The notes under the pieces were generated by a model that worked only from the letters and a program-made list of their open reading frames with translations, was not told the DNA's origin and searched no databases. From NCBI GenBank assembly GCA_964016885.1, contig OZ024762.1:18848001-18912000 (forward strand): DNA of 64,000 nt, read 5' to 3'. Shown piece after piece: positions 9,151 to 9,510 of the stretch (position 1 is the first letter of the stretch; the number at the start of each line of letters is the position of its first letter). Source of the DNA: Eledone cirrhosa. Lineage: Eukaryota. The position numbers were made by a program, and so were the translations under genes.

Positions 9151-9510
9151 GTAGAAGAGTCAGGACCCCGACGGCTGAGTTCTGGCCGTTTCGACAGCTA
9201 GATCCGTTCGGAGCTCAACTGTCGAGGTCCTGACTATTTTCCTATTACCCTCTCTACTACTCTAAGTATCGAGTACTCTGGTGCGTTATGGTCCACCTGT
9301 TATGTTACCACATCTTCTTTGTTTATATTTTTTTGTTACCCTAACATCCCCTTTATTTACGTGTCCCAACGACTTTTTTTAGCCGTTGTTCGCACCAACC
9401 TGAGGCATATGGCCCTTAAAGCGATGAAATGCCTGGGACGGTTGGAGGGTCACTGATGAAGGACTTACTTTTTCATATGCACCACCATTTGCAACGCGCA
9501 GCCATCATTA
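9151..9510 (+). mobile_element. Penelope-like non-coding element with 5' fold-back, in (TA)n
   Basis: 9151-9320 is homologous to 12186-12368 and 58073-58280; 9355-9500 is homologous to 51737-51890. Confidence 0.6.
9395..9464 (+). ncRNA. Candidate non-circularly permuted hammerhead ribozyme
   Basis: AGGCA-TA-TGGCCCT ... GAAA-TGCCT ... AGGGTCA-CTGATGA; stems I and III pair, stem II is weak. Confidence 0.65.

Follow-up and report, generated by a model that had tools for sequence, protein, structure and literature searches.

Hammerhead ribozymes of types I, II and III, as represented by the Rfam models, are circular permutations of one another built on a nested three-way junction. A different arrangement is found in type SGC (HRIMA-1 and variants; Eckert et al. 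2023, PMC10085705), reported from 583 metatranscriptome sequences, none of them in the genome of a known organism. According to that paper, these RNAs of about 80 nucleotides (nt) cleave co-transcriptionally at the predicted site, need all four helices and have low rates (0.007-0.19 per min). Its oligonucleotides show SGC-1 to run in the order S, 3-nt linker, stem II-GAAA-stem III, tie helix, stem I-CUGAUGA, stem II', 1 nt, tie helix' (S, G and C being the blocks with the cleavage site, GAAA and CUGAnGA), and its path from stem III through the tie helix to stem I is joined without linkers (PMC10085705). Here we analyze a stretch of 64,000 nt from the cephalopod Eledone cirrhosa (assembly GCA_964016885.1, contig OZ024762.1, positions 18,848,001 to 18,912,000, forward strand; hereafter the window, whose coordinates are used throughout), in which the hammerhead strands stand in S-G-C order. 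We consider it probable that these strands form the hammerhead of a non-coding, tandemly arranged retroelement present in many copies, a motif that likely folds as a single multi-pseudoknotted molecule with a predicted cut after A9409, and that the element undergoes retrozyme-like processing and returns to (TA)n. A first-pass annotation of the window had mentioned reports of natural non-circular permutations, and type SGC bears this out.

Hammerhead strands in S-G-C order and their genomic copies

The three hammerhead strands occupy 9404-9459 (+) in the non-circular order S, G, C. The first-pass annotation had placed them, as strands X, Z and Y, at the coordinates where we find them, both here and in a paralog (ribozyme 51743-51844), for which identical spacing, stem I UGAUUUU/AAAAUCA, stem III GGUA/UAUC and CUGACGA were all confirmed. 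The outer stem that it had described, CCAACC 9395-9400 with GGUUGG 9440-9445, is likewise present, but the extent of 9395-9464 given to the motif was too small, as it runs over 9363-9464. Its parts are listed below, with pairing scored over 15 natural copies, which are the sub-lineage representatives of families A, C and E, and with consensus scored over the 106 copies that have an intact P' strand.

9363-9366, + strand: 5' strand of helix IIa, GUCC, pairing with GGAC at 9461-9464 (90% of cells paired, 2 of 4 pairs changed on both sides)
9367-9388, + strand: hairpin H, third arm of a four-way junction (4 of 8 pairs changed on both sides)
9390-9393, + strand: 5' strand of helix IIb, UCGC, pairing with GCGA at 9421-9424 (96.7% paired, 2 of 4 pairs changed on both sides)
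9395-9400, + strand: 5' strand of helix P, CCAACC, the tie helix of stems I and II (100% paired, 5 of 6 pairs changed on both sides)
9401-9403, + strand: non-bulged strand of a predicted kink-turn, 3n U, 2n G, 1n A (G in 105 and A in 105 of 106 copies)
9404-9416, + strand: block S, with stem III' GGCA, U16.1 (9408), A17 (9409) and stem I' UGGCCCU (stems I and III covary)
9417-9433, + strand: 4-nt linker UAAA, 3' strand of IIb GCGA, U11.1 (9425), GAAA (9426-9429) and stem III UGCC, as read from the sequence
9434-9439, + strand: bulged strand of the predicted kink-turn, with the 3-nt bulge UGG, G.A (9437-9438) and 3b C (G in 103 and A in 104 of 106 copies)
9440-9464, + strand: 3' strand of P GGUUGG (9440-9445), stem I AGGGUCA, CUGAUGA (9453-9459), A10.1 (9460) and 3' strand of IIa GGAC

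The window locus thus carries the hammerhead core CUGAnGA, GAAA and U16.1-H17, with U16.1 kept in 106 of 106 copies and position 17 reading A, C or G in 100, 5 and 1 of them (H17 in 105 of 106); as CUGAnGA and GAAA were part of the search patterns, the conservation of both across copies is by construction. The covariation claimed earlier for stems I and III is real, 5 of 7 pairs of stem I and 2 of 5 of stem III having changed on both sides among the 15 sub-lineages. The proposed stem III survives in its GGCA/UGCC part and loses its outermost pair, A9403-U9434, which is A-U in only 35 of 106 copies; A9403 belongs instead to a tandem G.A motif, as the invariant A. A pattern combining the G and C blocks matched at exactly two places in the window and at none in 100 shuffles, and a descriptor of stems I and III, applied to the window and the first 60 loci, returned 82 arrangements in the order SGC, 3 in CGS and 2 in SCG, with zero for CSG, GCS and GSC, identifying a third SGC copy in the window at 54342. 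The order departs from that of types I to III, and the motif gave no match to the Rfam hammerhead families at E up to 10 on 9200-9510, the scan of the whole window being swamped by TA-repeat microRNA matches.

The 3.0-Gb genome contains multi-unit molluscan haemocyanin genes, and the seven units of each gene, along with the repeat landscape, point to an octopod. Across this genome, the pattern with A after CUGAnGA matched 5,285 + 5,161 = 10,446 times against 1 + 1 in the control, and a disjoint G10.1 pattern 3,304 + 3,598 = 6,902 times against 28 + 6, both being matches to the G and C blocks, many of them in truncated copies. The window copy has at least 1,101 candidate loci, the best 40 of which are 99-100% identical, and the paralog has 1,681. 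Searches recovered further families, termed B, C, E and an old family D at 70-80% identity, the last by DNA search, its narrow pattern having given 2 matches against 1 in the control. Monomers of the five families are 68-80% alike or unalignable, sub-families with 98-100% identical copies occur, and the G-to-C spacing is about 21-24 nt in all families. Three element copies in the window carry the motif.

9328-9519, + strand: 5'-truncated copy of the non-coding element, sub-family A1, with its 3' end running into (TA)n (98-99% identical to 29 other loci over 9328-9528)
51735-51911, + strand: second copy, sub-family A2, with ribozyme 51743-51844 and predicted cut after 51789 (97-100% identical to 29 other loci)
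53678-54471, + strand: family B element, one 672-nt period with two ribozymes

Sequence 5' of 9328 is unrelated among the A1 loci compared. The first ribozyme of the family B element is 5'-truncated just 3' of the cut (GAAA at 53686, CUGAUGA at 53712), and the second, with a predicted cut after 54343, GAAA at 54358 and CUGAUGA at 54384, has its upstream hairpin region deleted. Directly 5' of the truncated A1 element, 9155-9330 is occupied by a distinct repeat, whose inverted structure is branched (arms AGTCAGGACC / GGTCCTGACT) and which is found at other loci too.

Contigs from a sequencing run labelled as another organism (50 aligned to the A2 monomer) show several sub-family variants over the ribozyme, and three further runs with other organism labels gave 3-5 low-depth pieces each on that monomer, possibly carry-over, a hint of presence in other species. 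A G-C pattern tailored to these families also matched 113 metagenome and 4 viral stretches; as none of the 117 has an S block, these are chance matches. A recurrent AGTGG-GAAA...CTGAGGA match was dropped, the one copy checked having no S block.

Split stem II, helix P and the turn to stem III

Stem II had been described as about one base pair (bp) long. This was wrong, as its strands pair with the upstream segment 9363-9393, outside the span then considered, and conservation between the two window copies begins near 9358. GGAC and GCGA both pair upstream, leaving 10.1-11.1 as the sole direct pair of block C, and stem II appears weak because the upstream strand supplies its partner. A9460-U9425 (10.1-11.1), IIa, hairpin H and IIb make up a four-way junction at the place of stem II, and we infer that IIb is the equivalent of that stem. 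Over the 15 sub-lineages, 95.0% of 525 cells are paired and 21 of 35 pairs have changed on both sides, with at least two such pairs in every multi-pair helix. Slid controls reached 30-48% and 0 of 500 shuffles attained the observed value, a count that is not a probability, since the aligned sequences share ancestry and also served in part to derive the structure. The 10.1-11.1 position is A-U in eight sub-lineages, G-U in four, G-C in two and unpaired in one, so that a purine-pyrimidine pair is present in 14 of 15 lineages of families A, C and E; it is G-C in family D and A.C in family B, the remainder of stem II coming from another strand.

Conservation of the helices across families is a stronger argument than the shuffle count. 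Helix P reads CCAACC/GGUUGG, CCGACG/CGUCGG or CUGGGG/CCCCAG, is a 9-bp helix in family B and becomes CUAGCC/GGCUAG in family D; IIb is GGCGC/GCGCC in B and CGCGG/CCGCG in D, and hairpin H has other sequences in both. The counterpart of IIa is CCCU/AGGG in family B, and a IIa-like pairing in family D was read by eye only. In family B, 90.5% of cells are paired and 7 of 37 pairs have changed on both sides, while in family D stems III and I, helices P and IIb and hairpin H are kept as majority pairs in unrelated sequence, with G10.1-C11.1 in 15 of 26 copies. Of 338 G-C cores, 121 (43 of them distinct) satisfy a descriptor that spans the whole topology; when the upstream part was shuffled, 42 of 2,420 did so. 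We conclude that the feature is genuine and that its structure has been under selection across lineages.

The same pairings could be stacked differently, with IIa (GGAC/GUCC) as the true stem II under the core and IIb placed on hairpin H. Ordinary type I hammerheads here read CUGAUGA-A-GGAC-loop-GUCC-GAAA, with the same letters as IIa, and at the first G-C pair of IIa all 15 sub-lineages have C-G. However, 10.1-11.1 remains purine-pyrimidine across the A-U, G-U and G-C lineages, and a 4-nt linker connects stem I with IIb, which then continues through 1 nt into P', as stem II does in SGC-1 (PMC10085705). We regard this stacking as unlikely.

In families A, C and E, stem III and P are separated by three variable nucleotides followed by GA on one strand and by GA on the other. 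This junction is by consensus a standard kink-turn, which in Huang and Lilley (2016, PMC5061560) is likewise a 3-nt bulge followed by tandem G.A/A.G between two helices and bends the helix to an included angle of 50 degrees, and a kinked fold is predicted for it. The 3b.3n position is Watson-Crick in 2 and U.G in 14 of 106 copies, and 3b is C in 43 of 106, the window copy included. We found no paper placing a kink-turn inside a natural hammerhead, in a search made at the level of listings.

The first-pass annotation had taken the active form to be a strand-swapped dimer between adjacent tandem copies. Its non-circular hammerhead stands, whereas the dimer is unneeded and less likely than a pseudoknotted monomer. 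Tandem copies are common, P abuts stem I without a linker, and axolotl retrozyme hammerheads perform better in dimeric constructs (PMC7229834). A nested co-fold of two copies also reaches -62.2 kcal/mol against -55.4 kcal/mol for two monomers, but it contains no hammerhead. The conserved kink-turn consensus would supply the U-turn that a monomer needs and, together with the G-to-C spacing common to all families, suggests that this turn is intramolecular. Stem III moreover has a full 4-5 bp, and type-SGC RNAs, including some in which no nucleotide separates the tie helix from stem III, were handled and measured as cis-cleaving (PMC10085705). We therefore favor the monomer and consider the dimer improbable.

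Element anatomy, 5' junctions and mobilization

The monomers are non-coding, with periods of 517-806 nt, 61-70% pyrimidine on the ribozyme strand and a longest open reading frame (ORF) of 66-138 amino acids (aa; nine monomers). Their 3' ends are fixed at (TA)n, at a distance of about 23 or 60-90 nt from CUGA on its 3' side, and their 5' ends are variable. Tandem organization is clearest in a nine-copy array of A1-type monomers 721-806 nt apart (L165:1590-7743, G000:C1:43918169-43924213). Both orientations were seen in 26 family-by-locus counts, inverted partners occur, and at six loci (L064, L079, L128, L136, L151 and L239) head-to-head inversions have their junction at the predicted cut or up to about 20 nt from it.

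The 5' junctions with (TA)5 accumulate in the same region. In genome-wide patterns on the reverse strand, which list each locus once where forward counts repeat, 524 junctions lie 5-35 nt before GAAA, compared with 143 at 31-61 nt before it and 257 at 1-23 nt after it. Per nucleotide, this is an excess near the predicted cut of about sevenfold over the 5' bin and about threefold over the 3' bin, and 19 of the first 20 loci listed in the 524 class have their junction at the predicted cut or within about 12 nt 3' of it. In family B, which has no TA at the cut site, 11 loci have their junction at the first TA 3' of the cut, 8 nt away, with 0 and 0 at one TA site on the 5' side and another further 3'. 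As the counts use different anchors and depend on TA microhomology, the family A cut site itself containing TA, the pile-up is only suggestive as a footprint of in vivo cleavage. Most genomic copies read across the cut site, which calls for ligated or uncut templates.

These observations can be brought together in one putative cycle. Stems I and III would form as in any hammerhead, with the core stacked on 10.1-11.1 and IIb (UCGC/GCGA), while IIa and hairpin H, forming a four-way junction, would hold together the gap that follows CUGAUGA. Helix P would run back to stem III from the distal ends of stems I and IIb, the turn between P and stem III being made by the kink-turn in families A, C and E and by a bulge or loop in B and D. 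Read-through transcripts of tandem copies would be cut to unit length, and IIa, IIb, P and III, about 19 bp in all, would keep the two ends of a monomer together, an arrangement that would favor ligation to a circle. Cut monomers would then be re-joined and copied into (TA)n by the enzymes of a Penelope-like element. Reverse transcription would be primed in UA-rich sequence 3' of CUGA, at a distance of about 23 or 60-90 nt, and would usually cross the cut site and sometimes run off the cleaved 5' end.

The genome provides candidates for such enzymes, with 10,596 GIY-YIG candidates, open frames of 844-1,096 aa containing reverse transcriptase (RT), and ORFs with RT plus a C-terminal GIY-YIG that end near (TA)n. 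Several of 50 GIY-YIG loci carry ordinary type I hammerheads, and SGC copies present in three of them look like separate insertions.

Besides the limits of the junction counts, several results weigh against the retroelement ribozyme proposed here. An SGC ribozyme within 900 nt of the stop was seen at 0 of 50 GIY-YIG loci (150 scored, 10,596 candidates), from which we infer mobilization in trans by Penelope-like element enzymes, and homology of the monomers to the ends of these 50 loci, or to the pLTR (pseudo-LTR) of an autonomous element, was not seen among the matches listed. In nested folding of 9363-9464, by a program that cannot score pseudoknots, the pair probability of stems I and IIb is 0.0 and the segment has a stability no greater than that of shuffles (z -0.97). 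The 15 rows of the covariation analysis were hand-picked from about 50 groups, mostly omitting decayed singletons. Of the 338 cores, 217 do not fit the whole-topology descriptor; as a group, they are read as truncated, decayed, differently spaced or chance. In family B, A10.1 faces C11.1 and the junction must shift by one pair, the A and C at these positions offering instead A-U and G-C pairs with the upstream strand. The kink-turn consensus is absent from families B and D, and P would have to fit in three dimensions while joining stem I with 0-1 nt.

The fold might also be conserved and yet slow or protein-gated, cutting only with an L7Ae-family protein on the kink-turn, or serving mainly as a clasp and ligase for circularization. 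Reading across the cut site in most copies would fit such a device, as would the low rates of known SGC RNAs (PMC10085705) and the copies with U.G at 3b.3n, a class that folds poorly in metal ions alone (PMC5061560). Yet the same source has C at 3b, found in the window copy among others, favoring ion-induced folding, families B and D have spread without the kink-turn, and junctions accumulate at the predicted cut, all of which make a gated device a doubtful alternative to the self-cleaving monomer. It is very improbable that the motif arose by chance, or that it is an inactive relic carried along in a spreading repeat. Copies do inherit their sequence, and high counts alone show no selection, but the core and all helices are kept with different sequences in five families and the sub-families at 98-100% identity are young.

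The window holds further repeats. Positions 1-2223 form an ordinary non-LTR (long terminal repeat) retrozyme, a tandem array in which a 310-nt unit is repeated 7.2 times and every unit has a type I hammerhead-like core (CUGAUGA...GAAAC at 168, 478, 788 and onward). Other repeats have type I hammerhead-like cores at 12952, 50343 and 52423 (+) and at 13304 and 35930 (-), with weaker ones at 22068, 24773 and 28895; some read CUGAnGA-A-GG..CC-GAAA, with an extra A and GGAC/GUCC letters as in helix IIa, and the core type of 13304 and 35930 lies about 380 nt after GIY-YIG ORFs elsewhere in the genome. A large inverted repeat between two TA runs at 52590-52990, with CTGATGAGGACGTACTG in each arm, is a head-to-head hammerhead-like element. 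The segment 51920-52545 was considered as a piece of GIY-YIG elements and rejected, having no BLAST support. Positions 20023-21178 and 45271-45848 contain tandem 155-202 nt units of a short interspersed repeat, which we take to be of the octopod short interspersed nuclear element (SINE) type.

Comparison with described ribozymes and retroelements

We are evenly divided on a broader proposal, that a cephalopod lineage evolved and massively amplified an active four-strand non-circular hammerhead beyond the six permutations of 2023, with stem II made through a four-way junction, a kink-turn closure and a four-helix clasp that drives its own circularization and retrotransposition. As IIa matches stem II of type I hammerheads in the same genome, that genome may record the origin of a non-circular permutation. 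The arrangement contradicts the view that CUGAnGA cannot be parted from its stem II strand and exposes a class missed by current descriptors and Rfam models, and the cost, origin and role of non-circular permutations become testable. We found no report of an SGC hammerhead in an animal genome, in a literature search that left most subscription papers and repeat databases outside, and a 2026 preprint (10.64898/2026.07.22.740005), in its text without supplements, makes no mention of SGC, cephalopod, mollusc or pseudoknot.

As a mobile element, the SGC monomer shares with Penelope-like elements (RT plus GIY-YIG), as Craig et al. (2021, 10.1101/2021.04.23.441226) present them, partial tandems, inverted 5'-truncated copies and a (TA)n bias. 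Those elements have coding capacity, whereas the SGC monomers are non-coding, and the GIY-YIG loci examined here have type I hammerheads or none. The non-LTR retrozymes of animals are similar in that each of their non-coding, tandemly arranged monomers carries one hammerhead (Cervera and de la Pena 2020, PMC7229834) and in being both dispersed and arrayed and co-occurring with Penelope-like elements (also the preprint cited above, Li et al. 2026). Theirs, however, is a type I hammerhead in monomers of about 300 nt, in place of the non-circular SGC hammerhead and the 517-806 nt pyrimidine-rich monomers described here.

The closest relationship is to type SGC (PMC10085705). Both have the S-G-C order, a full core, a short linker between stem I' and stem II (4 nt here) and a tie helix, P in the present motif, that lies directly 5' of stem I and is reached from stem III. 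What the present motif lacks is an unbroken block C, in which the stem II strand after CUGAnGA pairs with the strand before GAAA, and it is for this reason a variant of type SGC and not a plain member. In type SGC the strand carrying II' and the tie helix stands 3' of CUGAnGA, whereas here the II'-1 nt-tie' strand stands 5' of S and of the cut. Block C has its opening after 10.1, where a four-way junction would clamp it, and the tie helix is connected with stem III through a kink-turn consensus. The published SGC search patterns require a direct stem II after CUGAUGAG or CUGAUGAUG and would thus miss the window motif. Finally, non-circular permutations have so far been known only from environmental RNA of unidentified organisms, as metatranscriptome contigs, whereas the chromosomes of an animal here yield more than 17,000 pattern matches, spread over five or more families that differ in age and set in a clear mobile-element context.
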